From Pontiella sp. (GTDB lineage Bacteria; Verrucomicrobiota; Kiritimatiellia; Kiritimatiellales; Pontiellaceae), in assembly GCA_050290185.1 (NCBI GenBank), contig JBNKHE010000001.1, positions 610,713 through 674,712 on the forward strand: DNA of 64,000 nucleotides. The letters are read 5' to 3'. Below are positions 965-39,023 of this stretch, one piece after another. Position numbers and translations under genes: made by a program. The number at the start of each line of letters is the position of its first letter. Positions within the stretch are counted from its first letter, which is position 1. Below the pieces are notes generated by a model. The model worked only from the letters and a program-made list of their open reading frames with translations. It was not told the origin of the DNA and ran no database searches.

Positions 965-2305
965 TTATTTCCCGGAAAGTCGGTAGAGCCCGGCACCATG
1001 AGCGGGCAATTCCGGCTCGAATGTTCCGTTTACCTTCAGGAATAAATTCTCGTGCTTCCACAGGTCGCGCACCTGAACCTTTCCCTTGAAGCCGACCGGC
1101 TCCATTTCCACCGGCACTTTGGCCTCTTCGTCAGTCGTATTGAACACCGCAAAATACTTATCCTTCGAATCGGGCACATCGGCCACCCAGGCAATGAATC
1201 CGTTGTCCGTGCGGAAGAGCTGGCGATTGTTTTCACTGTGCTGGTTTACAGCGAGCACTTCATCGTTGGTGAGCAGCTCCAACGTCAACTTGTCGGTCTT
1301 CGTCATGTCGCCGCCATGCATCAGCGGCGAACGGGCGATGCACCAGAGCGACATCAAGGTATACTGCTCGTCCTCGGTAAAGTTGGTTGGCCGGCCAAAC
1401 TTGACTTTGCCCAGCGGCAGCATGTCGGCATCCGGCCATGCCCCCTCGATGCGGTACGGTTCCCAATCGTGCAGTCGCTTGAACTGGGACAGCAAGGCCG
1501 GCCAGCTATCCCAGAAATCGTCGCTGATGCGCCATAGATTGGCATGCTGGTTCACATGCTCGCCCTTGGCCAACGGCGTTTCCCCCGGGGAAAGACTGAG
1601 AACCATTGGACGGCCGCTTTTATCGATCGCTTTGCGAATGGCTTCGATCTCGGCCTGTTGAACGGCATCATATGGACGGCTGATATCATCGACCTTCACA
1701 TAGTCCACGCCCCATGAAGCAAAAAGCTCATAGAATGAGTCATAGTATGACTGTGCGCCGGGCTTGGACATGTCCACCCCATACATATCCGGATTCCACG
1801 GACACGTACTGGAGGTGTTGGCAATATCGGCAGCTGTATATTCGGTGCCCTTGATCGGCGTCTTCTGTTTCACGGCCTGACGGGGAATGCCGCGCATCAT
1901 ATGAATGCCGAACTTGAGTCCCTTGGAATGGACATAGTCGGCCAACGGCTTGAAGCCGTTCCCATCTTTCGAAGAAGGAAATTTATTTGGAGCCGGCAGC
2001 AGGCGGCTGTATTCATCCATCGCCAGCTTGGCGCCCGCCTTGTAGTCGTGCCCCTCGGAACCAGGCTCGTACCACTGTATATCGACCACGATATATTCCC
2101 ACCCATGGGCCTTGAGCTTCTTCGCCATGAAGTCGGCCTGCTCCTTCGTCTGCTTTTCCGTGACCGTGGTGCCGAAGCAATCCCAGCTGTTCCAACCCAT
2201 CGGCGGCGTCTTCGCCCAATCGTGATAATCGCCGGCTTTGGCGTTTGCTACAACGCCCATTCCCAACACACTTGCGATCATCATGATGTACCTTGCCCGT
2301 TTCAT
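965..2305 (-). CDS. GH27 glycoside hydrolase, likely beta-L-arabinopyranosidase (or alpha-galactosidase), secreted
   Basis: TPPMGWNSW, DYVKVDD, WRISDD, WPDADMLPLG motifs; VVDIQWY instead of IDDCW; signal peptide. Confidence 0.9.
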   Translation of the reverse strand: MKRARYIMMIASVLGMGVVANAKAGDYHDWAKTPPMGWNSWDCFGTTVTEKQTKEQADFMAKKLKAHGWEYIVVDIQWYEPGSEGHDYKAGAKLAMDEYSRLLPAPNKFPSSKDGNGFKPLADYVHSKGLKFGIHMMRGIPRQAVKQKTPIKGTEYTAADIANTSSTCPWNPDMYGVDMSKPGAQSYYDSFYELFASWGVDYVKVDDISRPYDAVQQAEIEAIRKAIDKSGRPMVLSLSPGETPLAKGEHVNQHANLWRISDDFWDSWPALLSQFKRLHDWEPYRIEGAWPDADMLPLGKVKFGRPTNFTEDEQYTLMSLWCIARSPLMHGGDMTKTDKLTLELLTNDEVLAVNQHSENNRQLFRTDNGFIAWVADVPDSKDKYFAVFNTTDEEAKVPVEMEPVGFKGKVQVRDLWKHENLFLKVNGTFEPELPAHGAGLYRLSGK

Positions 2306-2580
2306 ATCCTAATCTCCTTTTCTTTGTCCCTGTCTAAAAACCTATCCCATTGAACATTGTTTGGGAAGCAGTCGGCAACAACGCTTTTTCTCATATCGTG
2401 ACCGCATGGCCTCCCCCCCCCCCTCCAAATGCCCCCTAAGGATAGACTGGACATGCGCCGTTCCGCTCAAGGTGCGGAAAGCGCAATCCACAGGGTCGCT
2501 CCGGAGTGGCTTACCAAGCTCATCGGATCCGGTGAATAAGATGCCCCTGCTCCCATCACGGGATCCCGGATAACGACGCC

Positions 2581-4506
2581 CTAGAGTTCCTTTACCTTGA
2601 GCACGACCACGGAAAAGGCGGGCATCTGATAGCTAAAGGTCGGCTTGATGCCGGAGACTTTGCCTGCTTCAGGCGAAATTTTCTTGGGCTCTTCAAGGGA
2701 ATTGTAGTCATCCGGATCACCGGTAAGCACCTCCACAAGCGCATTCGGCGCCACTTTTCCCACTCCATCGAGGGTAATCCGCACGGTTTCGCTGCTTCGT
2801 TCGGGATTGACCAGCTTGATGTAGACGATCCCCTGCTCGCTATCCCGGGTCACGGAACAGTGCAGGTCGGAACCATCGTTCATCGTCGTCGCAAGAATTT
2901 CGTCACCAAAGTTGGTACTGAACATCTTGAAGGCATAATAACTCGGTGAACCGTAGGACTGGATGACGTTGTAGCCGATCAGGTCGGGACGCCACTGATA
3001 TTCGTTCTCGTTGACGAACAGCGGAGCATAGGCCTGCAGGGTGACGATGTCGGAATTGCGCTCCATCGCCACCATGAAGACCGCGTCGCCGATGGCGGAA
3101 AGCATGCCCGGTGTCGCGGGATAGGTCTCTCTGGATCTCGCGTCCCACGGCCGAAGATTGCTATCCTCATGGGCCGCCCACTCACCGACAAAGATTTCCG
3201 GGCCGCTGCGGTCATAGTCGTCGAAGTAGCCATTCTTGACCATCTCGATGAATTCATCGGTAGAACGGTAGTAGTGCTCGTCGAGCACGTCCGGCTGTCG
3301 GCTCTTGACCAACCAGCGCGATTGCTCGTTGCCAACGCTGGAGATGCATTTGAGCTGCGGATATTTCTTCTTGATGGCGTCATGGAACTGCGCATACCGC
3401 CGATCGTAGCTGCCCGAGGTGTCGAACCAATCCTCGTTGCCGATCTCCACGTAATGCAGCGGAAAGGGCTCTGGATGGCCGGCTTCGGCGCGCTTGGCGC
3501 CCCATTTCGAATCGACGGGGCCGATGATGTATTCGATCTCGTCCAATGCCTCCTTTACATACGGCTCCAGCTCCGGCCCGGCATCAATATAGCTCTTGTT
3601 CAGGTTGTAGCCGGCATAGAGTCCAACCACCGGCTCGGCTCCCATGTCCTCGGCCCACAGCAGGAATTCATGCAGCCCCATTCCGTCGCATGAACGGTAG
3701 CCCCATGGGCAGGGATGGCCGGGACGTTCAGTTAGGCCACCCAGCGTTTCCCACCACTTGAAACGCTCTTCGACCGTATTGCCTTCGAGATAGTTGCCGC
3801 CGGGAAAACGCAGGAACTTGGGTTTCAGATCGACGAGCAACTGCATCAGATCCTTGCGCAGTCCATTCGGGCGATCATTCCACGTCGGCGGAAACAGTGA
3901 AACCAGGCTCAGCCAGATCGTGCGTTTTTCGCCTGCCAGCAGCACCAGCTGGGCATCCGCCGTTTCCTTTGCATTGTCCGTTTCAAGAATCACTTCATAC
4001 TTCTTCCAGTCCGGTCCGATAGATTCCACCTCGTCTTTGGCATAGATCTTCCGCCCGTCCTTGTCCATGATGGCGATGCCGACCGGGCCGGATCCGCCGG
4101 TGGATTTTGCATAGAACGAAAGACGGTATTTCGTATTCGGCTTCACAGGAATCCCCCACCAGCCTTCGTTGGCCAGTTTCGAGGCGCGCTTGGAGCGGAT
4201 ATCCCATTTCAAGGAAACATCGATCTTTTCATTAAGCGGATTGGCCCGGTCCAACTCGATCGTGCTGTTATCATCCAGCAACGACCAATGGACCGGCTTG
4301 TTCGCATCATCCTTAAAGGCGCGGTTTCGTACCAGCTCGGCATAGAGACCGCCGTCGTAGCAATAGTTGATCTCCTCCGTCATCAGCCCGTAATGGATCG
4401 GACTGGCCTTCGCCTTGGCTTCTTTCGTATCAATCGTCAACGTCGTGGATGCGAAGGCCACCGAGGCCAATGAAATCATGATTCCTCCCCAAAAAGCACT
4501 TTTCAT
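2581..4506 (-). CDS. GH51 alpha-L-arabinofuranosidase with N-terminal CBM-like domain
   Basis: DGGLYAELV, LRFPGGNYLEG, VEIGNED, IFVGEWA, ERNSD..YAPLF motifs. Confidence 0.92.
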   Translation of the reverse strand: MKSAFWGGIMISLASVAFASTTLTIDTKEAKAKASPIHYGLMTEEINYCYDGGLYAELVRNRAFKDDANKPVHWSLLDDNSTIELDRANPLNEKIDVSLKWDIRSKRASKLANEGWWGIPVKPNTKYRLSFYAKSTGGSGPVGIAIMDKDGRKIYAKDEVESIGPDWKKYEVILETDNAKETADAQLVLLAGEKRTIWLSLVSLFPPTWNDRPNGLRKDLMQLLVDLKPKFLRFPGGNYLEGNTVEERFKWWETLGGLTERPGHPCPWGYRSCDGMGLHEFLLWAEDMGAEPVVGLYAGYNLNKSYIDAGPELEPYVKEALDEIEYIIGPVDSKWGAKRAEAGHPEPFPLHYVEIGNEDWFDTSGSYDRRYAQFHDAIKKKYPQLKCISSVGNEQSRWLVKSRQPDVLDEHYYRSTDEFIEMVKNGYFDDYDRSGPEIFVGEWAAHEDSNLRPWDARSRETYPATPGMLSAIGDAVFMVAMERNSDIVTLQAYAPLFVNENEYQWRPDLIGYNVIQSYGSPSYYAFKMFSTNFGDEILATTMNDGSDLHCSVTRDSEQGIVYIKLVNPERSSETVRITLDGVGKVAPNALVEVLTGDPDDYNSLEEPKKISPEAGKVSGIKPTFSYQMPAFSVVVLKVKEL

Positions 4507-4601: not shown

Positions 4602-7520
4602 TTATTTCATATCCACGATAGCCTGCTTCCCAAGGTAGATCACTTCCTTGATTCCAGCCTCCGCCTCATCGATCCCCTTGGCGGTATCGGGCGTAGCGAG
4701 CACAACCCGGTATTTGCGCGCCTTGACGAGTTCCGGGAAACCGCCTTTGCGGTCGCCGATGGTCAGCGTGCGCGCAGCGTCGTTCCACTTTAGTTCGATG
4801 GTGGCGAATGCGCCCTTTTCATAGTTGTAGGTTTCTCCGTCGTCCTCGTAGATCGTGAAGGTGGCATCGGCCCCGGGATAGATGCGGATTTCGTACGGCG
4901 CATCCGGTTGCTCATCCACATACTGCATGGCCGGACTCATCGGCACGATAGATCCCGCGCGGACGTAGAGCGGGAAGATGTCCAGCGGGCACGGCCGTTC
5001 GATGTCCCGTCCGCCGTCGACCTTTTCGTTGGTCCAGAAGTCACACCACGTGCCGGCGGGCAGGTAGGTTTTCACCATATTATCCGGACCGGTATCGCCC
5101 GACGCCAATTCTTCGGGCGTCTTCCAGGCCAGCTTCAGGCCGCGGTCTCCCCCACCCTGGTAGTATTCGATCTTCAGCTGAACCTTCTGCCCCTTGGTGA
5201 AGGAGAGCTTCTTGCCATGGTACTCCATGCCATGGGCCCGCCAGTCATCGACAATCTGAACATCATCGATCCAGAGTCGCGCGCCGTCGTCGGCCACAGT
5301 TCCGATTTCGTACTCGCCGGTTTCCGGGATGGTTAATATTGCTTCGTAGCGGGCGGAGAAATCAGAGCCCCGTTCGATCCCCTCCGGAAAATCGGCCAGT
5401 GGAGGGCCGGGCCACGTCTGGTTGACCTGAGGCTCAACAGTTTTGCTGACCGCTTCTTCGAAGTTGCGACCGCGGTAGTACTGGACCGCAACGCCCGGTT
5501 GTCCGTCGGGCGTCTGGAGCAGCGCTCCCGGAACGAGACTCTCCGGGGCTTCCTCCCCGGCGGTATAGATGGCCCGATCGACAACCCGTGCGAGAAAGGA
5601 GGGCCCAAACATGAGCTGATTCTCGAGTTTGCGGACGTTTTGATCGTCCGGAAAATCCATCGCCATGCCGCGCATCATGGTGTAGCCATTAATGGTGGAC
5701 TGCCAGGCGAGGCCGTAGATGTATGGAATCAGACGGTAGCGCAGGTGCGCGGCATCGAGCATGGAATCGTACATCTCGGGATCCATGTCCTTAAAGAGAT
5801 AGGGCTCGCGAGAGATGCTCGTGCCGTGGATGCGGTAGATCGGATTGAAGATGGCGAACTGGTTCCAGCGGGCATACAGCTCGCGGTATTTCGGATCGCG
5901 CTCCGCATTTCCGTAAACAAAGAAACCGCCGGTATCCTGCGTCCAGTAGGGTTGCCCCGCCATGCAGACGTTCAGCCCGCCGGCAATCTGGCTGCGCAGC
6001 GTGTCCCAGCTCGCGCGGGTGTCGCCCGACCATGACAGTGCGGAGTAGCGCTGCTGGCCGGTGTAGGCGGAACGGGTCAGGGTGAAGACACGCTTGTTGC
6101 TGATGGCGCGCTGACCTTCGTAGGTGCCCTTGGTGGTCATCAGGCTGTAGGCGTTCAGATACCGTGAAAAGTCGCCCATGGCGTTGTCTCCAAGGTTCTT
6201 GATGTCGGCCATCACCTTGTAGGGATCATGACAGGCGCTGCCGACCTCGACCTCGGTCCCGTCCATCCAGAGCGCGTCGACACCGACATCGAGCAACCCC
6301 TTCTTGATGTGCTTGAAATAGATCTCGCGGCCCTTTTCACTGAAGGCGTCATAGATGCGAGCATGCTTGGAAATCCAGTGCAACGGCTCAAAGCGAAGTC
6401 CGTATTGATCCAGCTCCTTGGCCAGTGCGGTATCGTTGCCTACCGATGGCCAGATGGAAATCATCAGCTTGACGTGCAGATCATCGTGAAGCGTTTTGGC
6501 CATGCCGGCCGGATCGGGGTAGCGATCCGGTGTCCACGTCATACCACTCCAGGATCCGTCCTTGTCGCTGCCCCAGTATTGCCAGTCCTGCACAATGGTA
6601 TCGAGGGGGAACTGCACGTTGCGGAACTTTTTCACAACATCGATCACCTCATCCTGGGTCTTGTAGCGCTCCTTGCACATGAACAGACCGAAGAACTTCT
6701 TGGAAAGCATCGGGGCCGCACCGGTCAGCTTGCGGTAGCCGGCAATGACGTCGTCCATGGTGTCGCCCGCCATGAAATAGTAGTCGACGCCGGCTGGAGA
6801 ACTTTCGGACCAGAACGTGGCGCCGTCGGCATTGTCCTCGAAAGTCGTCTGAGAATAGGCGTCCCACATGATGCCGTAGCGATGAGTGGAAATCAGCAGC
6901 GGCACGACGATGCCGATGTTGGTCTGGATCAGCAGCACCTTCTTGCCGCGGTAGTCCATGTAGCGGTCATTGTACTGGCCAAGCCCGTAGAGCGATTCGT
7001 CGTCGCTCAACGTGAAGCGCTGTTTCACCTCGTAGGTTGGTGCTCCGGAGATCTCAACTTCCTTGATCTCGCTGGGTTGCTGGGCGTTTTCACGCGTGAT
7101 CAACGCTCCGTCTGGACGATAGAAGGACAATGCGCCGGTTTTACCATCAACCTTGATGGTCAGCATGTCGCTCACGATCTGAAAACCTCCATCGACCGGA
7201 ATGACCTTCAGCTCCGGCGCGTTCGGTTTATCCACCACCACCAGGCTGGCATACTCGGTCAAGGGCTTGCCCAGGTTGGAATTTACACGCACCGTTTCGG
7301 GGCCATAGAAAATGACGTTCTTGACGGTTTTGCCCACACGAATCTGCACACCATCCCGCAAACGGGCCACCTTCAACTCATCCACCTTCTTGGCTTGGGA
7401 CGCCAGTTTAAGTTGCCCACTTTCATCGAGTCCGGTCACGGATTTCGCAAAACCGTTCGAAGCCGCCATAAGAACCAGGCTCAGGGCAACAGCGCCATAG
7501 ATAGATCGTCTATACTTCAT
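4602..7520 (-). CDS. GH31 alpha-xylosidase-like enzyme with PA14 insertion
   Basis: IVQDWQYW, WMDGTE nucleophile motif, WSGD, YWTQDTGGF, PA14 (ADDGARLWID..HG); start at ATG 7520 (SD AAGGA, signal peptide). Confidence 0.9.
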   Translation of the reverse strand: MKYRRSIYGAVALSLVLMAASNGFAKSVTGLDESGQLKLASQAKKVDELKVARLRDGVQIRVGKTVKNVIFYGPETVRVNSNLGKPLTEYASLVVVDKPNAPELKVIPVDGGFQIVSDMLTIKVDGKTGALSFYRPDGALITRENAQQPSEIKEVEISGAPTYEVKQRFTLSDDESLYGLGQYNDRYMDYRGKKVLLIQTNIGIVVPLLISTHRYGIMWDAYSQTTFEDNADGATFWSESSPAGVDYYFMAGDTMDDVIAGYRKLTGAAPMLSKKFFGLFMCKERYKTQDEVIDVVKKFRNVQFPLDTIVQDWQYWGSDKDGSWSGMTWTPDRYPDPAGMAKTLHDDLHVKLMISIWPSVGNDTALAKELDQYGLRFEPLHWISKHARIYDAFSEKGREIYFKHIKKGLLDVGVDALWMDGTEVEVGSACHDPYKVMADIKNLGDNAMGDFSRYLNAYSLMTTKGTYEGQRAISNKRVFTLTRSAYTGQQRYSALSWSGDTRASWDTLRSQIAGGLNVCMAGQPYWTQDTGGFFVYGNAERDPKYRELYARWNQFAIFNPIYRIHGTSISREPYLFKDMDPEMYDSMLDAAHLRYRLIPYIYGLAWQSTINGYTMMRGMAMDFPDDQNVRKLENQLMFGPSFLARVVDRAIYTAGEEAPESLVPGALLQTPDGQPGVAVQYYRGRNFEEAVSKTVEPQVNQTWPGPPLADFPEGIERGSDFSARYEAILTIPETGEYEIGTVADDGARLWIDDVQIVDDWRAHGMEYHGKKLSFTKGQKVQLKIEYYQGGGDRGLKLAWKTPEELASGDTGPDNMVKTYLPAGTWCDFWTNEKVDGGRDIERPCPLDIFPLYVRAGSIVPMSPAMQYVDEQPDAPYEIRIYPGADATFTIYEDDGETYNYEKGAFATIELKWNDAARTLTIGDRKGGFPELVKARKYRVVLATPDTAKGIDEAEAGIKEVIYLGKQAIVDMK

Positions 7521-7608
7521 AACATTCCTTGATTTCAGTTTCTCTAAACATGCCTTGGAACCGGTAATCATAACAATTAAGGCCCCTCAGTCGATTTCCT
7601 TAAAACAC

Positions 7609-7737: not shown

Positions 7738-9681
7738 CTAGTTTCCTTCAATCCGGAAAAACTCCTTGCTCGAGGCCGCAGGAACCGTCGCCATGGTAGA
7801 AGCCCCCGCCCCGGAGACGTTGGTCACTGCCGTCCAGGACCCAGCAGTCAGGCTACTCTTGCTCATGACGCCATAGCTCGCGCCAATCTCGGATTGCCAT
7901 GTAAGCGTAGCCGAACCTCCCGATATCACAATCGACTGAATATCGGGCACAACCGTCGGTCCAGTCGGGGTCAAATTGATCAAGAAGGTGCGGTCGGCCG
8001 CCGGATGTACCGTCCCCAGATTGAGGGCCTCCTTCGTAGCCGTCGTATAGGCATCGCCGCCGCCGTACCAGTCGTTGGTGCCCATGCCCGCTAGTTCGAA
8101 GTAGGGTCCATAGGAGGTCAGATCGAAGCCATACTGCTTGTTGGCATCCAACGCGACGGGCACGCTCAATCTGTACTCCATCCAATAACCGGTGCCCAGC
8201 CCCCCGGAAACGCTGATGCTGTTGGATACCACCGTGAGCGCCTCGCTGTAGACCACAAAGTTGGCCGTGTTGGTTTGCGAAGGATCGACAATGCGGATCG
8301 TGACATCATCACCCGGATTCAGGCCGGCAAACGTGCCGTTGCCAGTAGGAAGATCATTGGTATAGAGCACGTTCTTAACCCAAACGGAACTCAACTCGTA
8401 GCCTGCAGAGGTCGAGCCGGTGGTGAAGATCTGTCCCTGGGTAAGGCGATCGTTCGCCACATAGGTCGAAGGATCGTTGTCCCCGGAATAAGCATTTGTC
8501 GAGACAACACCATCAATGTTATCCCAATCCATGCCGGGCGCTACAAACTGGGCGATGTCGTCCGCCCCGGCCCCCGGTGCATTGGTAGTCGAGGTGATGT
8601 ACACGCCCGATCCCTGGGCAACGATGCTGAATGCCCAGCTATTCGAAACGGCAGCAATACTTGGTTCCGTGTCATCGGCCACGATCTTTACCGTATGATG
8701 AGATCCTACCGCCAGCGGTGAAGGAACGGTATAGCTCACATAGTTGATCGTGGTGTCCACCGATTGGCTTACAACGGTAGAGACCTGCACATTGTCTAGA
8801 TACAAGGCGATGGAGTTGGTGTCGACGGGGAAAGTGCCATCAACGACCTCCGCCGTTATGGTTGGTGTTGCGTTGGTCGTTCCTCCTTCGGGACTTTTTG
8901 CACCAAAGCTAGGGGGATTCGCAGGAACCGTTGTAAGAACATCCGCAAAGGTCGTCCCCCATTTAATGTCATCCCAGAAACCGCTTGATTCATCGTAGTC
9001 TGAAAGCGTCAAGGTATCCCAGATCAGATCCTTACTCGACGCAATGAAAGAAGAATCGCCTTCGGAGGCTGGATCCAGCCAGACCGTTACTTCGTCGCTG
9101 GCAGCATTGGATGAAAGAACAAACTTTGCCACCATCAAATGCCAGCCCGTATCCAGAGCAATACCGGATGAGATATAGGAGTTGTCGACCCCGAAGCTGT
9201 AGACAGCCCCGCCCATTCCTCCATTATCCGTTGCACCCGCATCAAAGTTGCGGGAGGCATCGCTGTCGGTATTCCCGATGCCGTCGTACAGTGCCAGCAT
9301 CTCATAGGTCAGACCGGAAGTACCGTTGACTTTGAACAGCCATCCCAGATAGAGCGTACCTACGGAGTTGGAAGTCGCGCTGATCGAGGCATCCAGCTGG
9401 CGGGCGACACGACCGCTTGTAGTTTCTGCGAATCCATCATTCCCACTGACATAGCCACCGGGTTGACTGACAATATCCCCGCTTCCAAAGGATGTTGATG
9501 CGTGGACCCAATTGCTGACGTATCCCGATATAACCGGCGATGGAATATCGTCATCGAGTTGGGTAATGCCATCGTTGGCATATGCTGAGAAGTCATCATG
9601 ACTCAGCAACGTGGCCCGGGCCGAAACGGCTCCCATGGCCAGCACTGCGAGCAGGGTACTACTGGCTAATATCTTATTCAT
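7738..9681 (-). CDS. Secreted multidomain protein of unknown function (beta-rich domain, Ig-like domain, domain shared with adjacent GH31, C-terminal W..Y..L..W..FFR domain)
   Basis: Signal peptide, 647 aa S/T/G-rich ORF, SD GGAG; homology to N-terminus of 10000-13260. Confidence 0.85.
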   Translation of the reverse strand: MNKILASSTLLAVLAMGAVSARATLLSHDDFSAYANDGITQLDDDIPSPVISGYVSNWVHASTSFGSGDIVSQPGGYVSGNDGFAETTSGRVARQLDASISATSNSVGTLYLGWLFKVNGTSGLTYEMLALYDGIGNTDSDASRNFDAGATDNGGMGGAVYSFGVDNSYISSGIALDTGWHLMVAKFVLSSNAASDEVTVWLDPASEGDSSFIASSKDLIWDTLTLSDYDESSGFWDDIKWGTTFADVLTTVPANPPSFGAKSPEGGTTNATPTITAEVVDGTFPVDTNSIALYLDNVQVSTVVSQSVDTTINYVSYTVPSPLAVGSHHTVKIVADDTEPSIAAVSNSWAFSIVAQGSGVYITSTTNAPGAGADDIAQFVAPGMDWDNIDGVVSTNAYSGDNDPSTYVANDRLTQGQIFTTGSTSAGYELSSVWVKNVLYTNDLPTGNGTFAGLNPGDDVTIRIVDPSQTNTANFVVYSEALTVVSNSISVSGGLGTGYWMEYRLSVPVALDANKQYGFDLTSYGPYFELAGMGTNDWYGGGDAYTTATKEALNLGTVHPAADRTFLINLTPTGPTVVPDIQSIVISGGSATLTWQSEIGASYGVMSKSSLTAGSWTAVTNVSGAGASTMATVPAASSKEFFRIEGN

Positions 9682-9999
9682 TGCGCTCTCCCTCTCTTTG
9701 TTTTTTCTTCTCTCATTTCAGCCCCACGGAACCGGCAACTCATTGCCCCCTTAGTGCCTTCACCGTGTACACGCCGAACCTTGTGTTGCAAAATATCGGA
9801 TTCAGGGGCATTCCCGGCCAGACTGGAGAATAAATTACCACCCTCCTATTGATTACGAGCGACAGACGGTTTTTTTTACCGCCAGAAATTTTGAAAAAAA
9901 TGCACGGTACGATCACATGGCATCCGACAACGGCATCGGATGCAGACCGACGCCATCGTCACGAAACACATAAATGCGTGGAGAACCGCTGTTCGGTCA

Positions 10000-13405: not shown

Positions 13406-14164
13406 CTACATCATCAAACGGCGGCGAACGAACAATACGCCAACGCCGAATACCCCGATCAGGCTGAGCGTGGCCGGCTCCGGAATCACATTGGAGATCG
13501 CGATGTTGTCCATCATGATCCATGCGTCACTGCCAGCGGCCGGGATGTAGTTATTAATACGCAGAAACAGCTCTCCGCCGGTCTGCGCAGAAACATCAAG
13601 GGTTCCGCCCTCTCCGATGAACAAATTGAAACCGGTGCTATCTCCCTTATCGATCACGAATGAATCCAAAAGAGTTATGCCATCCGCGCCCAGAACATCG
13701 GTATTGTCAGCGGCTACGAATGCACCCGTTCCATTAAACTCATAGACAGCTACACGGATACCGAAATCCCGCCCTGAAGCATTTCCGAAGTCACCATAAT
13801 CGAAGGAAACATCGAATGCCGTGGCAGCAGCATCGGATCCAATGCTCTGGTATACCCAACTGTTGCCGGTAGTACCGTCTACAGTGGCATCGGCCGAGAA
13901 ACCCGAGAACGCCAATGCAGCCTGGCCGGTATAACCGGATTGGGTGTCCGTGGGAACTTCGGCATCACGCGTATCCTGCCAAGGATGCCTAAAAAAATCG
14001 GTGGTAGTAGTGTCACTATACCAACCGCTAATGCTGGCTTGGGTCGACTCGTCGGCGATGCCGGTTTCAAAGTCACCATTGGTGATCAACAACGCGGCAC
14101 CCGCAAACGGCGCCAATCCCAACAGAGCCATCAAAACGACGCCTCTCTTCATTTCTTTTTTCAT
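13406..14164 (-). CDS. PEP-CTERM sorting domain-containing surface protein
   Basis: Signal peptide; C-terminus IPEPATLSLIGVFGVGVLFVRRRLMM. Confidence 0.92.
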   Translation of the reverse strand: MKKEMKRGVVLMALLGLAPFAGAALLITNGDFETGIADESTQASISGWYSDTTTTDFFRHPWQDTRDAEVPTDTQSGYTGQAALAFSGFSADATVDGTTGNSWVYQSIGSDAAATAFDVSFDYGDFGNASGRDFGIRVAVYEFNGTGAFVAADNTDVLGADGITLLDSFVIDKGDSTGFNLFIGEGGTLDVSAQTGGELFLRINNYIPAAGSDAWIMMDNIAISNVIPEPATLSLIGVFGVGVLFVRRRLMM

Positions 14165-25791: not shown

Positions 25792-25977
25792 AAATTCCTC
25801 CAATTAGTAAAAAACAAGCGGGCGACATCAATGTAAGAACAGAACGCCACTTATTCCCCACAGTTTTATAAGTTATCAATATGAAGAAAACACCATACTT
25901 CATCAAGGATCGTTTCCTTTAATCATGTAGGCGTTGTAAATGTATGGAAAACCCGGCATGGAGGCACAGTCAAGCGA

Positions 25978-29996: not shown

Positions 29997-32717
29997 TTAT
30001 TTTTTCAGACGGTAAAACGCCTTCTCCGCCGGAAGAGGCAACGAGACAGACAGTCCGTTCGTTGAGTTTCCGACGGCATTGGTTACGGTTGTCCAAAGAT
30101 TGGATGCACCCAATTCATCCGAATGCGCCAACGTAAATCCCACCGTATTTCCGGGCCAGGTCAACGTGCTCATTCCTCCCGATATATCGAGGTTCAGACC
30201 TGGAGTTTCCTTTACCAACACATCCGGTCCGGCCAGATAGTGGCCGTAGATATCATACCAGGACAGCACCTCGGAATAGATCCGCACTTCGTCATATTCC
30301 ACATGGGAGTTGGAGTCCCCGCTCCACTGCGAACGGCCCAGCCAGTTGTTTACGTCTTCGATATCCTGCAACTGGAAAGGCACATCGCGCCAACCGATCT
30401 GATAGCCGTCGCGATAAAGCGTCATGCGACCACCCGTAGCACCGAAGAACCCGACGCCGTCCTCGAAGGTGAAGACATAGTGATAGCGGGTACCCACCGT
30501 CGTGTCCATGCACGTGCCTGATACCGCATCTTTATTGGTATTGGCGGAGTCGACCATGGCGCAATTTTGCTTATTAATATCAGTGCCGACATTGATGGTC
30601 CAGTACATCGCGTTTAACGCCGAGGTTCCGCCGGATGCGGGACCAGTCCACTCGCCTCCGCCATCGCCCGTTTCTGCTGTTCTTCCGAACGAGAAAAGCC
30701 GTTGCCAGTTTTTCGAGGCGGCTGGCGTTGCCCAGATTTCCACCGTCACATTGGTGAGCGATGAAATGATACCATTGGGCAAGTCGAGATAGGCCGCATC
30801 GCCTGTTGCGGTCGTGTCACCGGGCAGTAGCAATCCCGTACCGCTGAAAGTCGCACGGTTGCCGTTCACCACGGCTTCCACGCCGGAAACCGCATCCGTG
30901 ATCGTCGTGCCCGACGAAACGGAGCCCGCGGCATCATCGAACGACCAGCGATAAACCAACGACGACAGATTGGTCACATTATCCTGCATCGGTTCGATAA
31001 AGGCTCCCAAAGCCGACAGCGGCGCTGCAAATACCGTACAGTGGTGCGGCGGGCCTCCATCATATCCATAATCGGGGACATAGCTCTTCTTCGGCATGTC
31101 CGTGAGCGCAGTTACATCCGTCCAGTTGGTGGTATCGGAGGAAACCGCCATGCCAAACACGTCATCGCCATAGCCATAGTTGTCGTAGCATAGGTGCCAG
31201 GAATCCCCGATCTTGAACAGGCATGGCCCCTCGTCCCCGCCGGAAGTTGCCTGACGGGGATTGGTCCAGGGTCCATACGGCGTGCTGCTATCCAGCACCC
31301 ATATCTGGGCATTATCCTTGTAGGCCATGATATAGTGGCTCGCAGCGACCTTGGCTACAAAACCATCGATCTGCTCGCCCGTCGGATTCGAAGCATTCCA
31401 GTACATGACAACAGGATCGGCAAAGGTCGCGAAGTCGGTCGTCGTCGTATAATAGATCCGGATCGCATTCCCGCCGACGCCGGATGAGAATGCGATCAGG
31501 TATTGATCAAGGACCTCGTCGTAGAAAATCTCCGGCGCCCAGGTGTGATCTACCGCACTCGGCTCGTTTTCCCAGATCTGCACCAGTTTGACATTCGACC
31601 AATGGACCAGATCGGGCGATTCGGCATAGCCGAAGGAGCGGGAATTGATGTCCGAAGTAAAGACCAGATGATACAAGCCGTCGGGGCCATGGACCATGGA
31701 TGGGTCGCGAACGAGATTTTGGTAGCCGTCCGTGTTGTCTGCATCGTCGCCCGGGAACTCCGGCGGCACGAAAACGGGATGGCCGTTGTTCAACGGCTTG
31801 AAGTCGTATCCATTGGTACTCCAGCTCAGAAAAACCCCGCTGTTTCCGCCGGCCGGATAGTAGCCTTCGTGGTAGCACATGAGATACACCGTCTCGTTCG
31901 TTACCCCGGCCAATGCCCCCCCCACCTTGCTGGGCGTCGGCGGAGGCGGCGGTTCAATCACAATGTTCGTCGACGGGAACGAGGTATCCACGCCGGAGGT
32001 CCGGTAGAGATTATCGATATGAACCGTATCGGTTAGATGCTGCGTAAAGGCAAAAGCCTCCAGATTTACCGGATCGGTAATCCGCCCAAACTGGACGTTG
32101 GCAAGACCGAGCGTGCTATTGGTGGTACCGGTGGACCAATAGACATCGAATGTCTTCGCACTATTATCAACGACAAGCCAGATGTTGTACCATTGGCCGG
32201 TGCTGATCGAGGTGATGGAGGTATCCCCAATATTATCGCCGTACGCTTTCAACTGCCCACCGGCGATGTAGGGCATGACCGAGTAATCCTGCCAGGAGTT
32301 GTTTTCATCCACCGTAGCCGTATTCTCCGCTAATCCGAACATGCAATCGAAGCTGCTGTCTTCGACCATAAACTGGAAGAAATAGGTGGCCGTGTCCCCA
32401 TCGGCAAGACTGTAATCGTTCGTGAAATTATTTTTGAGATCGGTTTCGGCCCCACGCCATGCGCCGCCACCGTATGCGGCAATCGACTGATCCCCGAACG
32501 CATCATCGTCATAGATGTGCGCCCGGCTGGTTCCGTCTACGATGCCCACCCAAACATCCTGGCCCACCGCTGCATCATAGGTGATCCCATCACCGATCAG
32601 GGTACTTGAGCTGTTATCGTAGGCATCATAATTATCGACGAGCGCCCACTGCGCCTGCGCGGCGGCCCCAAGCCCCAGCACCGCCGCACCAACCAATCTC
32701 ATTTTCATTCCACTCAT
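29997..32717 (-). CDS. Secreted GH43-like hydrolase with LamG domain and C-terminal FYRL domain
   Basis: VRDPSM, WAPEI, QIDG, DEGP, HH.T propeller motifs; WQRLFSFG..NNWLGRSQ LamG. Confidence 0.85.
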   Translation of the reverse strand: MSGMKMRLVGAAVLGLGAAAQAQWALVDNYDAYDNSSSTLIGDGITYDAAVGQDVWVGIVDGTSRAHIYDDDAFGDQSIAAYGGGAWRGAETDLKNNFTNDYSLADGDTATYFFQFMVEDSSFDCMFGLAENTATVDENNSWQDYSVMPYIAGGQLKAYGDNIGDTSITSISTGQWYNIWLVVDNSAKTFDVYWSTGTTNSTLGLANVQFGRITDPVNLEAFAFTQHLTDTVHIDNLYRTSGVDTSFPSTNIVIEPPPPPTPSKVGGALAGVTNETVYLMCYHEGYYPAGGNSGVFLSWSTNGYDFKPLNNGHPVFVPPEFPGDDADNTDGYQNLVRDPSMVHGPDGLYHLVFTSDINSRSFGYAESPDLVHWSNVKLVQIWENEPSAVDHTWAPEIFYDEVLDQYLIAFSSGVGGNAIRIYYTTTTDFATFADPVVMYWNASNPTGEQIDGFVAKVAASHYIMAYKDNAQIWVLDSSTPYGPWTNPRQATSGGDEGPCLFKIGDSWHLCYDNYGYGDDVFGMAVSSDTTNWTDVTALTDMPKKSYVPDYGYDGGPPHHCTVFAAPLSALGAFIEPMQDNVTNLSSLVYRWSFDDAAGSVSSGTTITDAVSGVEAVVNGNRATFSGTGLLLPGDTTATGDAAYLDLPNGIISSLTNVTVEIWATPAASKNWQRLFSFGRTAETGDGGGEWTGPASGGTSALNAMYWTINVGTDINKQNCAMVDSANTNKDAVSGTCMDTTVGTRYHYVFTFEDGVGFFGATGGRMTLYRDGYQIGWRDVPFQLQDIEDVNNWLGRSQWSGDSNSHVEYDEVRIYSEVLSWYDIYGHYLAGPDVLVKETPGLNLDISGGMSTLTWPGNTVGFTLAHSDELGASNLWTTVTNAVGNSTNGLSVSLPLPAEKAFYRLKK

Positions 32718-32849: not shown

Positions 32850-33716
32850 TTAGATCATGAAGCGGCGACGGGCAAACAACAGGCCTGCGCCAGCAATACC
32901 GATCAGGCCAAGCGTGGCCGGTTCCGGAATGTTGGTGATAACCACGTTATCGACATAACCGTCCACCCGGTCTCCATGTCCGTCGCCGTACATGCCGCGG
33001 CCAACCGTCCAGCCATATTTCGGGCCGCTGGCACCTTCCACTTCACCGGTCTGCAAAGCAACTAGGGAGGAATCCGTGGCACCGCTTATATCCAAGGTGT
33101 TTTCCAAGGCACCGTTTACATAGAGGCGCAGAGTAGCTCCATCGCTGGTAGCTTTCACGTTGTACCATGAAGATGCGGATGCCAAGGTCGAGCCGTCCAG
33201 AATAAAACGGTCTCCGGACGCCGTCGCAAAGTTAATTCGGAAGGCGCCGGTATCGACCTTCTGCAGGTAGAGCGCCGCGGCATTTGCGTCACCGCCTAGA
33301 TTGATCCCATCCTTGCCGACGAGAGTCTGATAGCCACCAGTGCCATTGAAGTACACGTCCGCCTCGATCGACCACATGGCCAAGGCTCCGACAGCACTTC
33401 CGCCCAGCTGCAAGTCGCCGTCAGTCTGGGTTCCACCGAAGGATCCGGTTCTGTATCCAGCCAGCGTGGTGTTTCCGCCAATGTTCTGCGCCACGCCATA
33501 ACCACCATTGAAATAGTTGTAAAGGTGGTTTCCATTGCCCGAGGTGTCATCAATATAATCACCGTCATTGATTGTGACGAGATCGTTGGCGGTCAGGGTT
33601 TGACCATCCGTGGCGGCAACGCCATTGATGCTTTCATAATCCCAGCTCGCGATCACTGCCGCATGGGAAGCCGCAGCGAAAACAAGCATCCCTCCTAATA
33701 TTACTAATTTTCTCAT
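32850..33716 (-). CDS. PEP-CTERM protein with LamG-like domain
   Basis: Start MRKLVILGG (SD AGGAG); C-terminus IPEPATLGLIGIAGAGLLFARRRFMI. Confidence 0.92.
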   Translation of the reverse strand: MRKLVILGGMLVFAAASHAAVIASWDYESINGVAATDGQTLTANDLVTINDGDYIDDTSGNGNHLYNYFNGGYGVAQNIGGNTTLAGYRTGSFGGTQTDGDLQLGGSAVGALAMWSIEADVYFNGTGGYQTLVGKDGINLGGDANAAALYLQKVDTGAFRINFATASGDRFILDGSTLASASSWYNVKATSDGATLRLYVNGALENTLDISGATDSSLVALQTGEVEGASGPKYGWTVGRGMYGDGHGDRVDGYVDNVVITNIPEPATLGLIGIAGAGLLFARRRFMI

Positions 33717-33790
33717 TTTTTCTCTCCTTTTGTTGAATTGCCCCGCCGCCGGACCATCCGGTGGCGGGGCAAAAGTTCGGTGGGCTGTGG

Positions 33791-35776
33791 TTATTCCCCA
33801 TAGACACGGAAGAATTCCGCGGGGTCTCCGCTGACCGAGAAGCTGGTATTGTTTCCGGCTCCACCACTCAAGCCGGTTGCACCCGCCACGGGGTTCCAAG
33901 TGGGCGAAGTCAGGCTCGTTTTCCTTTCGATCCGGTAGGTGCCGATGACATCGGAATTCCAATTGATCGTTACGCTGCCACCTGCAATCGAGATCGAGTT
34001 GATCGTCGGGGCAAAGGCTGGGCCTCCGGGTGTCTCAACGAGCTGAATCGCATTGAAGCCACCATCGCCGCTCTGGGCACGGATAGCGATCACTCCTGCG
34101 GCACTGGCCGTGACGTTGGAGAAGACCACATAGTTGCCCGATGTATTCGTCGGCGTGGCCTGCACAAAGTCCTCGTAGGCACTTGCTGTGCTGGGCTGAC
34201 GAACGAGTTCCAGGGAGTTGGCCGCCGAACTCGTTCCATTCGTTAGCGTATAGGTAACTGCAGCCGAGGTGTTCCACGTCCATGTGAAATACACGTAGAC
34301 ATCGTAGGTGGAATTGGTATTGAGGCCCGATAGCAATACACTGCCGTCAAAGTTTGCAACTCCCCAATATCCTTGGTTCAACGCTGTGACGGGCGAACCG
34401 GCATTGGCGGAGCTCCAATCACGATTACTACCCGACCACGTAAAGTTTATACTGCTACTACCGTCGGTCGCATTGGTAGCCACGAGGGTGGCAGGTTCAT
34501 TCGTTGTGGTCGCAGAGGTCGAATCCTCGACATAGTTATTCCAATAGTTGGCTCCGGTTGAATCCCCGACAGCAGGAATGATTGTCCCGTTCGGCACCTC
34601 AACATTGGCGTTCGCCCGACCTGCAATGTTGATGTTGTACAAAATGCTGCCCGAAGGAATGGTTTTCGCTATAGTGAAAAACCAATCGTTGGTGGCTGCA
34701 TTGGATGCGTTGTCGACGTAAACCACCCTGCCGGTATATGATCCTTCGGCAAGATTGCCGGCCGAATAACTGATGGTATGGGATGAACCGCTAGTGGAAA
34801 AGCTGTCTTTAACCAGCACTCCATCCAGATAAAGACCTGCCGATGAAAGGGTTGCCGTCCCCCAATCAGAAATTTCGGCAGCCAGAACAACCGGATTGAC
34901 GGTAGGGCCTTCCGGAGACACGGAGTTAAGAACCAGCTCATTTTTGGAGAGGACAAAGGTGCTTAAATCCAATGCGGTATCCGAAATCGCCACCGCATCA
35001 ATTTTCCCGTTGAACCAATCGCCCCGGTTTCCCCCATACAGTCCGCGGCCCACCGACCACCCGCCGGCATGCCATTCGCTTCCGCTGGTTGTACCGATCG
35101 CCAGTCCACCCATGGCGGTGGCCGACGATGCAACCACGGCACCATCTAGATAGAGGGAAACCGTTGAGCCATCGCTCGTTCCCGCAAGATGATGCCATTT
35201 TTCGGGGTCGGCCAGGACGGTAACCGAGCTGATCAGCCGAACCCTATTGCCACTAACATCGGTAAACTCGAAAATAACATGATTGGCGTTATCAAGGCCG
35301 AAGTAGAGCGCGGCATTGGCGGCAGCACCTGACAAGTTCTGTCCGTCGCGGCCAACGAGGGTACGGAATGACCCATCACCGCCATCAACCGTGAAAAGGG
35401 CTTCAACCGTAAGATTCGTCGGGGTTGCCGTTTCGACATCGACTCCACTGGGGCCGCTCTGGGTGGACCAAGTGAAGGCCGACGGAGTGGTGCCGGATGG
35501 AGTAATGGCAAAATCTCCGGCATAACTGTTGTTCGTCCAAGTGTAGCCACCGTTGGACGAATCCCATACCGTCAAATGGTTTCCGTTTCCGGATTTATCT
35601 GTCGCCGCTTCGTTCCATACCGTATAGGCAGTCGAATCCGGCAATGCCACACCATCCGCGGCACCCAGCAAAGGGTCGTTGAAATCCCAATGTGCCAAGA
35701 TTGAGGCTTGCGAGACCGAAGCCGCCAACAGCGCCCCCGCAACTAGCATTGCATATCTACTTCTTTTCATGTTCAT
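33791..35776 (-). CDS. Secreted LamG-domain protein with Ig-like, unknown beta-domain and C-terminal FFR domain
   Basis: Signal peptide; DKSGNGNHL, WHHLAGTSDG..LYLDG; ends EFFRVYGE. Confidence 0.87.
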   Translation of the reverse strand: MNMKRSRYAMLVAGALLAASVSQASILAHWDFNDPLLGAADGVALPDSTAYTVWNEAATDKSGNGNHLTVWDSSNGGYTWTNNSYAGDFAITPSGTTPSAFTWSTQSGPSGVDVETATPTNLTVEALFTVDGGDGSFRTLVGRDGQNLSGAAANAALYFGLDNANHVIFEFTDVSGNRVRLISSVTVLADPEKWHHLAGTSDGSTVSLYLDGAVVASSATAMGGLAIGTTSGSEWHAGGWSVGRGLYGGNRGDWFNGKIDAVAISDTALDLSTFVLSKNELVLNSVSPEGPTVNPVVLAAEISDWGTATLSSAGLYLDGVLVKDSFSTSGSSHTISYSAGNLAEGSYTGRVVYVDNASNAATNDWFFTIAKTIPSGSILYNINIAGRANANVEVPNGTIIPAVGDSTGANYWNNYVEDSTSATTTNEPATLVATNATDGSSSINFTWSGSNRDWSSANAGSPVTALNQGYWGVANFDGSVLLSGLNTNSTYDVYVYFTWTWNTSAAVTYTLTNGTSSAANSLELVRQPSTASAYEDFVQATPTNTSGNYVVFSNVTASAAGVIAIRAQSGDGGFNAIQLVETPGGPAFAPTINSISIAGGSVTINWNSDVIGTYRIERKTSLTSPTWNPVAGATGLSGGAGNNTSFSVSGDPAEFFRVYGE

Positions 35777-36155
35777 CTCCTCTTGTTTTATACCCATAGC
35801 TCTAAATCAAAGAAATAGAGCCCGATCATCCATTTCGACGAACTGGAATCACACTTTGTTCATATATATAAACGGAAAAAACACGTGGATCCCCTCAGCA
35901 TATTTATACAAAGTTTGTTACACAGACAGCATCACCGGTAGGCCACATCGCACCCCGGCCACTAAACAAACCACAAAACCCTCTCTACAGGAAACTTACG
36001 ACTATTTCCACGAATCCTTACAGTCGACCAACAGGCCCGAAAGACGTTCAAAAACCTCCGCCTGACCGTGTAGAAACCGAGGTTTTCCAAACTGCCACGG
36101 CCGAGGGATGAAATCATGCAAGACTTGCACGCAATCATGATGAAAGCTTTTCGCA

Positions 36156-36750: not shown

Positions 36751-36794
36751 CTGAAAACCAACGAAGGTCACGGACCTTCCAGAATGCGACCTGA

Positions 36795-39023
36795 ATGAAA
36801 AGCGATCCACAACCGAGCGAGAACATAGAGATCACACAGGCGGAACAGATTTATTTTGCAGCCGTTGATATCGAGGATACCGTTGAGCGAAGCGCATTCA
36901 TCGAGACCTCCTGTTCCGGCAATGAGGCCATCCGGTTAAAAGTGGATGCGCTTTTTAAACTGCAGGACCAAGCCACGAAAATCTTCGAAGCACGCAATCC
37001 TACCCGGATATCGGCGGTCGACATCGCCAATACCCTGACCGAAATCCCGGAATTCCATGCCCGCATAGGCTCGGTCCTGCCCGACGACACGGAAGTGGGC
37101 AAACGGATCGGCAACTACAAATTGCTACAGAGGATTGGCGAAGGAGGGGTCGGTAATGTCTATCTGGCCCAGCAGGAAAAACCGGTACGGCGGCAGGTGG
37201 CGCTTAAAATCATCAAGGCGGGCATGGATACCAAGAATGTCATAGCCCGTTTCGAGGCCGAGCGCCAAGCGCTGGCCATGATGGATCACCCGAATATCGC
37301 CCATGTACTGAACGCGGGCGAAACGGAAGCCGGTCGGCCGTACTTTATAATGGAACTGGTTCCCGGGGAGCGCATCACCACCTATTGCGACAACAACCAG
37401 ATTGGAATCAATCAGCGTCTGGAGCTGTTCATCCAGACCTGCCATGCCATCCAGCATGCCCATCAGAAGGGGATCATCCACCGCGACATCAAACCCTCCA
37501 ACGTACTGATTACACTTCACGATGGAGTCGCGAGCCCCGTTGTGATCGACTTTGGCATCGCCAAGGCCACCTCCGGCGATCTTCTTACCGATAAAACGGT
37601 CAACACCTCAATAGGCCCCTTGATCGGCACACCGGCCTACATGAGCCCGGAACAGACGAATCTGGCCCAAATGGACGTTGATACACGCAGCGATATCTAC
37701 AGCCTCGGCGTGCTACTTTATGAATTGCTCATTGGCATCCCTCCTTTCGATCAAAAGACCCTGCTCAAGACGAGCATCGACGAGATGAGCCGAATTATCC
37801 GGGAAATCGACCCGCCCCGCCCTTCGGTCAAGTTCAAGAACATGGACGACGAAGAGCGGGAGAATACCGCAAACAACCGTGGTATGGATGCCCGGAAGCT
37901 CTGCGCCATATTGGCGGGTGACCTGGACTGGATCGCCATGATGGCGCTGGAGAAGGATCGTGAGAACCGCTACGAAACCGCCAATGCCCTGGCCGTGGAC
38001 ATCGAACACTTCCTGCACAAAGAACCGGTTACGGCGCGCCCGCCGAGCCGGCGCTATCGTTTCCGGAAACTGGTGCGCCGCAACAAACGGATTTTCGCGA
38101 CGGCAACCTCGATCGGGCTCGCTCTGGTTGTAGGATTTGGCATGTCCAGCTGGTTCCTCGTCAAGGAACGCCAGAGCCGCAAACGGGCCGTTCAGGCGGA
38201 ACAGCAGCAGGCTCGCTTGCGCCTGAAAGCCGAGGACCGGGAACGCATTGCGCACGCCGCATTCCTCATCGGCCAGGAAAAGATGGAAGAGGCCGATCAA
38301 ATGGTGGCTCGTATCACGACGGAACTGACACCTTCATTGGAGACAGAATCCGTTCTGAAAAAACTCGGGGAATGGCACGCCCTGAGAGGTGAATGGGAGC
38401 AGGCCGCGAACCACTTCAATGTGTTGCTGAAGGTGGATATCATGGATGACTCCTGGGCGATCACTGACGACTTGTTGATGGCTGGCCCCCTGCTGATCGA
38501 GCGCGGGGATCTGCAAGGATATGAGCGGTTCCGAAAAGCCGCGATTGCCCGGTACCAAGAAACCACGGATCCGATTTTTGGAGAACGCACCCTCAAGATT
38601 AGCCTGTTGCTACCCGCAGATGCCCAAATGATGAAACAGCTGCAACCTTTAGCCGATGTCGCCTCGGACGCCACGCAGGGATCGATAGACACCATCATGA
38701 CGTCCTGGCGCTGTGTTTCCCTAGCCCTTATGGCCTATCGGCAGGAGTACTACCCCACCGCCATCGCGTGGTGTGAGCGTTCGCGTTCCTTCGGACAGAA
38801 TAATCAGGCGCGGATTGCGACAACCCGCATCATTCAAGCCATGGCCCATTACCGGCTGGAAGAAATTGAACCAGCACATTCAGACCTGGCGATTGGCCGC
38901 CAGATGACTGATGCGGCTTTTACCGAGGGACTGAGTATGGGAGATGGCATTAAAGGTTTTTGGTTTGACTGGCTCTTTGCCAACATTCTCCTTCGCGAGG
39001 CGGAAGCACTGATCATTCAATAG
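36795..39023 (+). CDS. Membrane-anchored Hanks-type Ser/Thr protein kinase with TPR-like C-terminal domain
   Basis: IGEGGVG, VALK, HRDIKPSN, DFG, GTPAYMSPEQ; TM segment; paralog of 14499-16730. Confidence 0.93.
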   Translation: MKSDPQPSENIEITQAEQIYFAAVDIEDTVERSAFIETSCSGNEAIRLKVDALFKLQDQATKIFEARNPTRISAVDIANTLTEIPEFHARIGSVLPDDTEVGKRIGNYKLLQRIGEGGVGNVYLAQQEKPVRRQVALKIIKAGMDTKNVIARFEAERQALAMMDHPNIAHVLNAGETEAGRPYFIMELVPGERITTYCDNNQIGINQRLELFIQTCHAIQHAHQKGIIHRDIKPSNVLITLHDGVASPVVIDFGIAKATSGDLLTDKTVNTSIGPLIGTPAYMSPEQTNLAQMDVDTRSDIYSLGVLLYELLIGIPPFDQKTLLKTSIDEMSRIIREIDPPRPSVKFKNMDDEERENTANNRGMDARKLCAILAGDLDWIAMMALEKDRENRYETANALAVDIEHFLHKEPVTARPPSRRYRFRKLVRRNKRIFATATSIGLALVVGFGMSSWFLVKERQSRKRAVQAEQQQARLRLKAEDRERIAHAAFLIGQEKMEEADQMVARITTELTPSLETESVLKKLGEWHALRGEWEQAANHFNVLLKVDIMDDSWAITDDLLMAGPLLIERGDLQGYERFRKAAIARYQETTDPIFGERTLKISLLLPADAQMMKQLQPLADVASDATQGSIDTIMTSWRCVSLALMAYRQEYYPTAIAWCERSRSFGQNNQARIATTRIIQAMAHYRLEEIEPAHSDLAIGRQMTDAAFTEGLSMGDGIKGFWFDWLFANILLREAEALIIQ

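Follow-up and report, generated by a model that had tools for sequence, protein, structure and literature searches.

What controls a long run of secreted glycan-degrading genes, and in answer to which signal, is the question raised by a 64,000-nucleotide stretch of a Pontiella sp. genome (contig JBNKHE010000001.1, positions 610,713 to 674,712; hereafter the window). Between positions 965 and 39023 it combines glycoside hydrolase (GH) and lectin-like genes with two gene pairs, each encoding an extracytoplasmic function (ECF) sigma factor and a membrane Ser/Thr kinase. We consider it probable that each pair is a kinase-activated sigma system of the ECF43 type, which transcribes an adjoining cassette of secreted glycan genes from a predicted promoter, the likely trigger being a glycan-derived signal at the outer domain of the kinase. 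The source genome of the window (G000) is 95.5% complete.

Two sigma/kinase pairs of the ECF43 type

Both pairs are intact in the window and consist of the following genes.

16738..17301 (-): sigma1, ECF43-type (HTLVPTA; PF07638; TIGR02999 190 bits; the start may be at 17295)
14499..16730 (-): kinase1, with an N-terminal extension, a Hanks kinase domain, one transmembrane (TM) segment and a tetratricopeptide repeat (TPR)-like outer domain of ~290 aa
36193..36750 (+): sigma2, ECF43-type (HTLQPTA; TIGR02999 204 bits)
36795..39023 (+): kinase2, a paralogue of kinase1, with a Pkinase domain

An earlier note, made from the sequence of the window, had recognized two paralogous pairs of the TIGR02999 type, and the profile scan of the window open reading frames (ORFs) bears this out: the sigmas score 190 and 204 bits against a cut-off of 126 bits, and 183-190 bits with PF07638 (Sigma70_ECF). 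Each kinase is encoded at position +1 of its sigma and contains a Pkinase domain (the longest ORF of kinase1 reaches 16784). The sigmas are 62% identical, the kinases 48%, and the kinase outer domains 37%. The window does not hold the whole set, however, as the genome has five intact pairs plus fragments.

In region 2.2 the sigmas read HTLVPTALV and HTLQPTALV, as the note had reported, with a Thr in place of the DAED acidic patch (VPTA and QPTA compared to the ECF43 consensus QTTA, the position being located by the motif alone). The pattern TLx(P/A)TAL is carried by all 61 aligned sigmas, and the position of T50 of sigma2 is invariant across 25 aligned rows. ECF43 sigmas lack the acidic patch for RNA polymerase and gain it through phosphorylation by the +1 kinase, which is restrained by its periplasmic TPR region until the signal arrives (PMC13147305, PMC8999054, PMC7826278). 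By sigma profile, region-2.2 Thr and kinase layout, both pairs are of the ECF43 type. By analogy with the studied members, we predict Thr52 of sigma1 and Thr50 of sigma2 to be the main phosphosites, and activation of the sigmas by phosphorylation seems highly likely. A point that weighs against this scheme is that EcfK T51A alone is still functional (PMC13147305), and thus one Thr may not be the whole switch. EcfK has a second phosphosite, T106, in its linker; the linkers of the window sigmas are acidic.

The single TM segment assigned earlier to each kinase was found again, as one hydrophobic segment with a Kyte-Doolittle (KD) peak of 1.6 and 1.8, respectively, preceded by a basic patch; the C-terminal domain measures ~290 aa (~280 in the note). 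Homologues with a locatable segment (91 of 120) show a mean KD peak of 2.0 and net charges of +6 on its N-terminal and -0.7 on its C-terminal side, which places the kinase domain inside and the ~290-aa domain outside. The best solved-structure match of kinase1 is PknS (PDB 9EED); no solved structure matched the sigma. Close kinase homologues are named Pontiellaceae, and more distant ones Opitutus, Verrucomicrobiae and Haloferula luteola. As the note had stated, the 36 scanned ORFs of the window include no anti-sigma factor, hybrid two-component system, SusC/D or TonB receptor.

A Shine-Dalgarno-like motif precedes 2 of 24 sigma genes, compared to 39% genome-wide, and a strict sigma-70-like pattern 4 of 24, compared to 2.5%; leaderless transcription of the sigma genes has modest support. 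Stand-alone ORFs of 83-128 aa that resemble only the kinase N-terminal extension and have no Pfam match occur at G000:C2:391350-391661 (L007:10351-10662), at G000:C10:28228-28614, and in G011 at L198:1468-1719. These ORFs may act on the pairs, as decoys or as regulators, or may be mere remnants.

A predicted promoter in front of the pair-linked cassettes

The genes and sites next to the two pairs are listed below, starting with the pair-1 cassette.

14301..14329 (-): predicted sigma1 promoter P1a, TGTCGG-N16-TCGCCCG behind a T/A tract; rank 5 of 2447
13406..14164 (-): PEP-CTERM protein (TIGR02595), first gene after P1a
10000..13260 (-): secreted, alpha-xylosidase-like GH31 that has an accessory region at its N-terminus
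9856..9884 (-): predicted sigma1 promoter P1b, TGGCGG-N16-TCGCTCG; rank 3 of 2447
7738..9681 (-): secreted protein without a Pfam domain, ending in a shared ~65-aa C-terminal domain
4602..7571 (-): GH31 with a PA14 domain
2581..4506 (-): GH51, alpha-L-arabinofuranosidase family
965..2305 (-): GH27 (Melibiase_2)
35869..35897 (-): predicted sigma2 promoter P2, variant TGAGGG-N16-CCGTTTA; rank 16 of 2447
33791..35797 (-): first gene after P2, encoding a secreted LamG protein that has the shared C-terminal domain
32850..33962 (-): PEP-CTERM LamG protein, whose real start probably lies downstream of 33962
29997..32717 (-): secreted GH43-like protein, also carrying the shared C-terminal domain
27123..29963 (-): secreted Ig/LamG protein

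The earlier placement of a pair at the head of each gene string needs a qualification: pair 1 is co-directional with its cassette (PEP-CTERM, GH31, unannotated secreted protein, GH31-PA14, GH51, GH27), and pair 2 is divergent from its own (LamG, PEP-CTERM-LamG, GH43-like, Ig/LamG).

Gibbs sampling of 21 intergenic regions of relatives, with the source genome outside the training set, yielded a motif composed of a T/A tract, TG(T/G/A)C, a free 16-nt spacer and (T/C/G)CGC. Of eight runs, the best two reached an information content of 24.2 and 24.1, versus ~17 for shuffled regions. The consensus before pair-adjacent cassettes is TG(T/G)CGG-N16-(G/T)CGC, and P1a and P1b give two matches to this pattern against 0.02 expected, the pattern having been fitted to these same two sites. 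In the held-out scan of the source genome, six of the top seven among 7.13 million positions precede pair-linked cassettes, and in the ranking by gene eight cassette-head genes occupy places 1-6, 10 and 16 of 2447, the remaining listed PEP-CTERM genes standing at 118 or lower. After removal of seven direct orthologues from the training set, the eight sites rank 1-182 of 7.1 million positions, and with a boxes-only matrix derived from other families two pair-1 targets rank 7 and 11 of 2502. The orthologous locus L030 carries TGAGGG-N16-TCGTTTA at the position of P2. We therefore predict that TG(T/G)CGG-N16-(G/T)CGC is a sigma-type promoter specific to pair-linked cassettes, and control of the cassettes by the pairs is very probable. 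Two observations on P2 count against so uniform a picture: it deviates from the phylum consensus, ranking 2222 of 2502 with the boxes-only matrix, and without its orthologue in training it ranks 95 to 520 of 7.1 million.

An alternative, which we regard as very improbable, is that a different regulator binds the motif, or that the motif represents a housekeeping promoter kept by descent, and that the pairs are passengers in glycan islands regulated by LacI, AraC or two-component systems. A LacI gene with an operator-like palindrome does lie inside the locus, five genes with a Y_Y_Y domain are present in the genome, and a T/A tract, of a kind common in promoters, contributes to the matrix score. 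Yet the motif has two boxes that always stand 16 nt apart while the sequence between them is free, lies ahead of unrelated genes, and is absent from other PEP-CTERM genes.

The match with the highest boxes-only score in the genome, C4:236486, lies ahead of an unrelated membrane protein gene, and we regard it as a chance match. Scans of 900-18600 for sigma-70 promoters and terminators gave results at or near chance level. The locus L003 (G000:C4:56823-67999) contains three near-identical promoter regions, and the 3' end of its kinase gene is duplicated at C4:60526-60870, which together suggest cassette growth by tandem duplication. At L008 (G000:C10:28874-34901), a paralogue of the pair-2 cassette (LamG-type, PEP-CTERM, GH43) has no adjoining sigma and no high-scoring site.

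The central block

Between the two cassettes lies a further set of hydrolase genes with its own candidate regulator.

17420..25803 (-): central block of GH51, GH43, DUF2905, GH43-like, GH3-PA14 and GH43
25905..25919 (-): imperfect palindrome AAGGAAACGATCCTT, LacI-type
25978..26943 (-): LacI-family regulator

No ECF-type site in the 17.4-26.9 kb block (three GH43, GH3, GH51 and LacI) was found among the top motif matches. The palindrome at 25905-25919 resembles a LacI-family operator and is no more than a lead in this direction: it has no second copy in the genome, and a match was also obtained in 9 of 100 shuffles. The central GH51/GH43/GH3 block is thus probably LacI-controlled, and the proposal that the sigma/kinase pairs govern the whole 965-39023 locus is not supported. 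The narrower proposal that the pairs switch on modules of carbohydrate-active enzymes (CAZymes) agrees with the motif ahead of the pair-linked cassettes, which passed the held-out tests, but does not extend to the central CAZyme block.

The motif in other genomes

Among 37 genomes of the genus, the genus pattern has seven matches in G006 and one each in G000 and G023; three G006 sites outside the training set precede orphan GH31, PEP-CTERM and GH115 cassettes. Genus genomes without the kinase clade have seven matches, equal in number to the seven control matches. All seven overlap ORFs, which argues against the pairs being mere passengers.

Outside the genus the consensus sharpens to TG(T/G)CGG-N16-(G/T)CGCATG, and 18 of 29 loci carry the motif immediately downstream of the kinase. 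A search of GTDB genomes with the strict pattern returned 93 stretches; the following figures come from the 80 listed, with taxa assigned from record titles. Verrucomicrobiota-labelled records account for 39 of these matches, other taxa for 37, and four are unlabelled. A kinase of this family lies just upstream of 21 of the 39 Verrucomicrobiota-labelled matches, only four of which are training sites, and 30 of the 39 adjoin homologues of TonB receptors, GH43, GH51, GH127, major facilitator superfamily (MFS) transporters or LamG proteins. Such glycan-type genes are found beside one of the 37 matches in other taxa; for the four unlabelled matches, the kinase is upstream in two and glycan-type genes are beside three.

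A similar pattern in 40 chosen genomes matched in 11 of 22 kinase-positive genomes versus one of 18 others, and the reversed control gave zero. The lone match among the latter, in G155, sits inside an ORF, again at odds with a promoter that exists independently of the pairs. Of the six distant sites in kinase-positive genomes, five lie ahead of a TonB receptor and one ahead of GH43, and in G306 and G349 such genes follow distant motif sites though the pairs themselves adjoin no such loci.

In the comparison of -35 boxes with sigmas, a site could be assigned for 44 of 61 sigmas. The box variant tracks the clade to which the sigma belongs: sigmas that have an Arg in the sigma4 helix are paired with TG(T/G)C (33/33), those that lack it with other boxes (11/11). 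This also speaks against the passenger explanation, although the pairing amounts to about one change on the tree and is thus consistent with recognition by the sigma rather than an independent proof of it.

Two negative results weigh against the motif as a general partner of the pairs. The regular expression gave no post-kinase site in 11 of the 29 loci outside the genus, three of which have a longer-spaced or displaced site, and the strict genus pattern found no site in the sigma-positive genomes G011, G030 and G032.

Some strict matches have unusual settings (group L168, L146, L106 and L176). One lies in a Pseudomonadales-labelled record beside a full pair with GH51 and LamG genes (transfer or mis-binning), another follows a sigma and a kinase with a different outer domain in an Acidobacteriota record, and in two Limisphaerales records the motif stands between sigma and kinase. 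Record L119 shows sigma, kinase, motif, TonB receptor and GH51 one after another.

Co-location with glycan genes and the nature of the signal

A synteny survey, proposed together with the original claim, was carried out at three levels. In the source genome a GH gene lies within 5 kb of four of the five pairs, compared to 9% of other genes, GH genes being represented by 77 genes picked by BLAST, a proxy that may miss families; the fifth pair adjoins PEP-CTERM, LamG and BNR_4 genes. In related genomes, TIGR02999 was above cut-off in seven of 61, all within the genus. The loci of relatives number 27, of which selected ORFs were scanned: 21 fall into the clade that has this kinase (two of them are cut by contig ends) and six into an outgroup. 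A GH-type gene lies within ~5 kb in 17 of the 21 loci; near the six outgroup loci there is a GH13-like gene in one and a sulfatase in two. One genome, G006, holds 12 or more copies of the pair.

Across the phylum, the kinase outer domain was found in 24 of 401 Verrucomicrobiota genomes and 14 of 184 genera, and 19 of the 29 non-genus loci have a GH gene in the scanned span. The clearest case is family f39 (inferred to be Opitutaceae), with a GH gene in 15 of 17 loci, mostly GH43, GH51 or GH127 accompanied by an MFS sugar transporter; in 10 of 17 the kinase is immediately followed by a TonB receptor. Thus the absence of TonB receptors, noted earlier for this locus, is specific to lineages, since the same regulator heads TonB-receptor loci in f39. 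Co-location recurs in the source genome, in the genus and in the phylum, but failed in families f40 and f50 (0 of 8 loci with a GH neighbour in the scanned span). These eight loci, and four of the 21 genus loci that have PEP-CTERM or secreted genes only, weigh against a glycan function throughout; several f40/f50 loci also have PEP-CTERM-like or other secreted genes.

Judged from the targets only, the signal is probably glycan-derived. Evidence for a glycan signal is strong in f39; such a signal is plausible in the source genome and unsupported in f40 and f50. A different account, to which we assign a low probability, retains control of the cassettes through the motif but takes the signal to be a protein, a surface contact or the state of the envelope, and the output to be a surface or adhesion programme including some hydrolases. 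The first genes are indeed often PEP-CTERM or LamG genes, all eight f40/f50 loci are without a GH neighbour, and the known ECF43 signals are polymyxin stress and amoebae (PMC8999054). Against it stands the coherent uptake and hydrolysis set of f39 (TonB receptor, MFS sugar transporter, GH43, GH51, GH127), which also follows the distant sites.

The outer domain of the kinase bears on both accounts. No Pfam model covers this domain, whose family comprises 419 clusters at E<=1e-30 and at times occurs in tandem copies; the domain is modelled as an all-helical solenoid (predicted local distance difference test score 88.8) with generic TPR-like matches, a fold class that usually binds proteins (PMC13147305). 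Fold searches returned generic TPR-like matches only (best Z 12.9) and no standout sugar-binding match, which counts against a glycan ligand, and ESM Atlas matches were all below 0.9. Likeness to MalT domain III (Z 12.8, root-mean-square deviation 8.8) was rejected as within the range expected for helical repeats. On the other hand, Trp, Asp, Glu, Lys and Arg positions conserved at 80-100% among homologues would suit a sugar site, as judged from the alignment and not from the model; in kinase1 the conserved residues include W534, W541, K611, W652, W741, D743 and W744. We retain a glycan-derived signal as the preferred reading; that the outer domain itself binds the sugar is tentative, the chances being slightly below even.

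The source genome has 31 GH43 matches and one strong sulfatase match only, which points to plant rather than sulfated algal glycans. Elsewhere it encodes three TonB receptors and the five Y_Y_Y-domain genes; no SusD and no FecR match was found in it. Three large Y_Y_Y-domain sensor genes stand in a row at G000:C6:200335-212367, ~11 kb from the C6 pair.

Proposed mechanism and relation to known systems

By analogy with the ECF43 work, a housekeeping promoter would supply the sigma in an inactive form, autophosphorylation of the kinase would be gated by its periplasmic TPR-like domain, the kinase would phosphorylate the region-2.2 Thr (T52 in sigma1, T50 in sigma2), and the phosphorylated sigma would bind RNA polymerase. 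Genomic context suggests that the signal may be an oligosaccharide (of arabinan type where a single copy heads a TonB locus), which the kinase would bind either by itself or via a partner. Sigma1 would then act on P1a and P1b (PEP-CTERM, two GH31, GH51, GH27) and sigma2 on P2 (LamG, PEP-CTERM, GH43-like); the differing -35 boxes of the paralogues would keep the regulons apart, and the block between the two cassettes likely answers to LacI. Going further, we see a chance slightly below even for a class of polysaccharide-locus regulator of Verrucomicrobiota's own, in which a receptor Ser/Thr kinase would bind oligosaccharides (ancestrally of arabinan type) through its helical periplasmic domain of ~290 aa and phosphorylate an ECF43 sigma, and which in Pontiella-like bacteria would have been duplicated into mutually insulated units of sensor, sigma and promoter, each for a different plant glycan.

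The pairs resemble EcfK/PknS of Xanthomonas citri and EcfP/PknT of Vibrio parahaemolyticus in the Thr replacing DAED, the +1 kinase, one TM segment, the N-terminal extension, the TPR-like outer region and the lack of an anti-sigma. They differ in output, which is glycan uptake and hydrolysis plus secreted lectin-like genes here and the type VI secretion system or polymyxin resistance there, as well as in the distinct ~290-aa outer-domain family, the -10 box (G/T)CGC(AT), the phylum and the expansion of paralogues. Promoter prediction for ECF43 gave GTC (-35) and CAG (-10) (PMC7826278). The -35 box TGTCGG found here contains GTC; the -10 box is CGCAT and not CAG, a point against our reading. 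The ECF43 core group of 2021 was Proteobacteria-only (PMC7826278), and the kinase-linked groups outside ECF43 have retained an acidic motif of the DAED type (PMC8999054). The latter holds for the planctomycete ECF217 (former ECF59), which shares with our pairs a membrane kinase at +1 and a PVC (Planctomycetes-Verrucomicrobia-Chlamydiae) phylum, whereas the window sigmas are without this motif.

Like the regulators of polysaccharide utilization loci in Bacteroidota, the pairs combine a membrane sensor with adjacent target hydrolases (in f39 also a TonB receptor); unlike them, they would rely on Ser/Thr phosphorylation of the sigma, with no His-Asp relay, anti-sigma or SusD, and with no TonB receptor in the window locus. 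The lack of SusC/D, noted earlier for the locus, is ordinary for the phylum, being reported for other Verrucomicrobiota (PMC11980603). In Clostridium thermocellum, sigma-I/RsgI likewise comprises several paralogous sigmas with distinct CAZyme regulons, but acts by anti-sigma release (PMC10766802), whereas here there is no anti-sigma and the sensor is the kinase. According to a 2024 review, hemicellulase genes are canonically controlled by hybrid two-component systems, by pairs of ECF and anti-sigma factors, and by catabolite repression; the term 'threonine kinase' is never used in its available portion (PMC10766802).

This kind of signalling is already known. What appears to be new is that it serves polysaccharide loci, along with the promoter consensus and the boxes particular to each paralogue: none of these turned up in the literature searched, and no paper listed there connects ECF43 with glycan loci. 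The available portions of the Pontiella agarivorans preprint, the Limisphaera paper and the hemicellulase review contain no such glycan use of ECF43. The list of Iyer et al. 2020, outside our coverage, reportedly gives over 900 ECF43 members with their contexts and may include such loci. If true, a kinase-phosphorylated sigma would add a route to the control of hemicellulase-type genes, its known use so far being in stress and defence genes, and would provide a regulator for Verrucomicrobiota glycan loci, which are without SusC/D and for which none is described in the literature checked. For the ECF43 kinases studied so far, the signals lack a molecular definition; the arabinan-type loci name candidate ligands together with an exact promoter, making ligand binding, phosphorylation and promoter use directly testable. 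Paralogues with differing -35 boxes are natural variants for the study of sigma specificity.

Other features of the window

The thrS gene directly faces the GH51-to-sigma1 block in G011 (L034), and the pair-1 cassette has another context in G023 (L026); the window locus is thus a composite of modules. The ~65-aa C-terminal domain (conserved Trp, final F(F/Y)R(L/I)) common to the products of 7738-9681, 29997-32717 and 33791-35797 occurs in about 15 other G000 genes and may be a sorting signal. The Ig/LamG protein 27123-29963 has in its N-terminal domain, where there is no Pfam match, an HEGAH motif, which we take to resemble a zinc-peptidase site. Further downstream, three autotransporter genes surround pyrG at 41521-52511, and groEL, dnaK and three HSP20 genes lie at 53780-62424.

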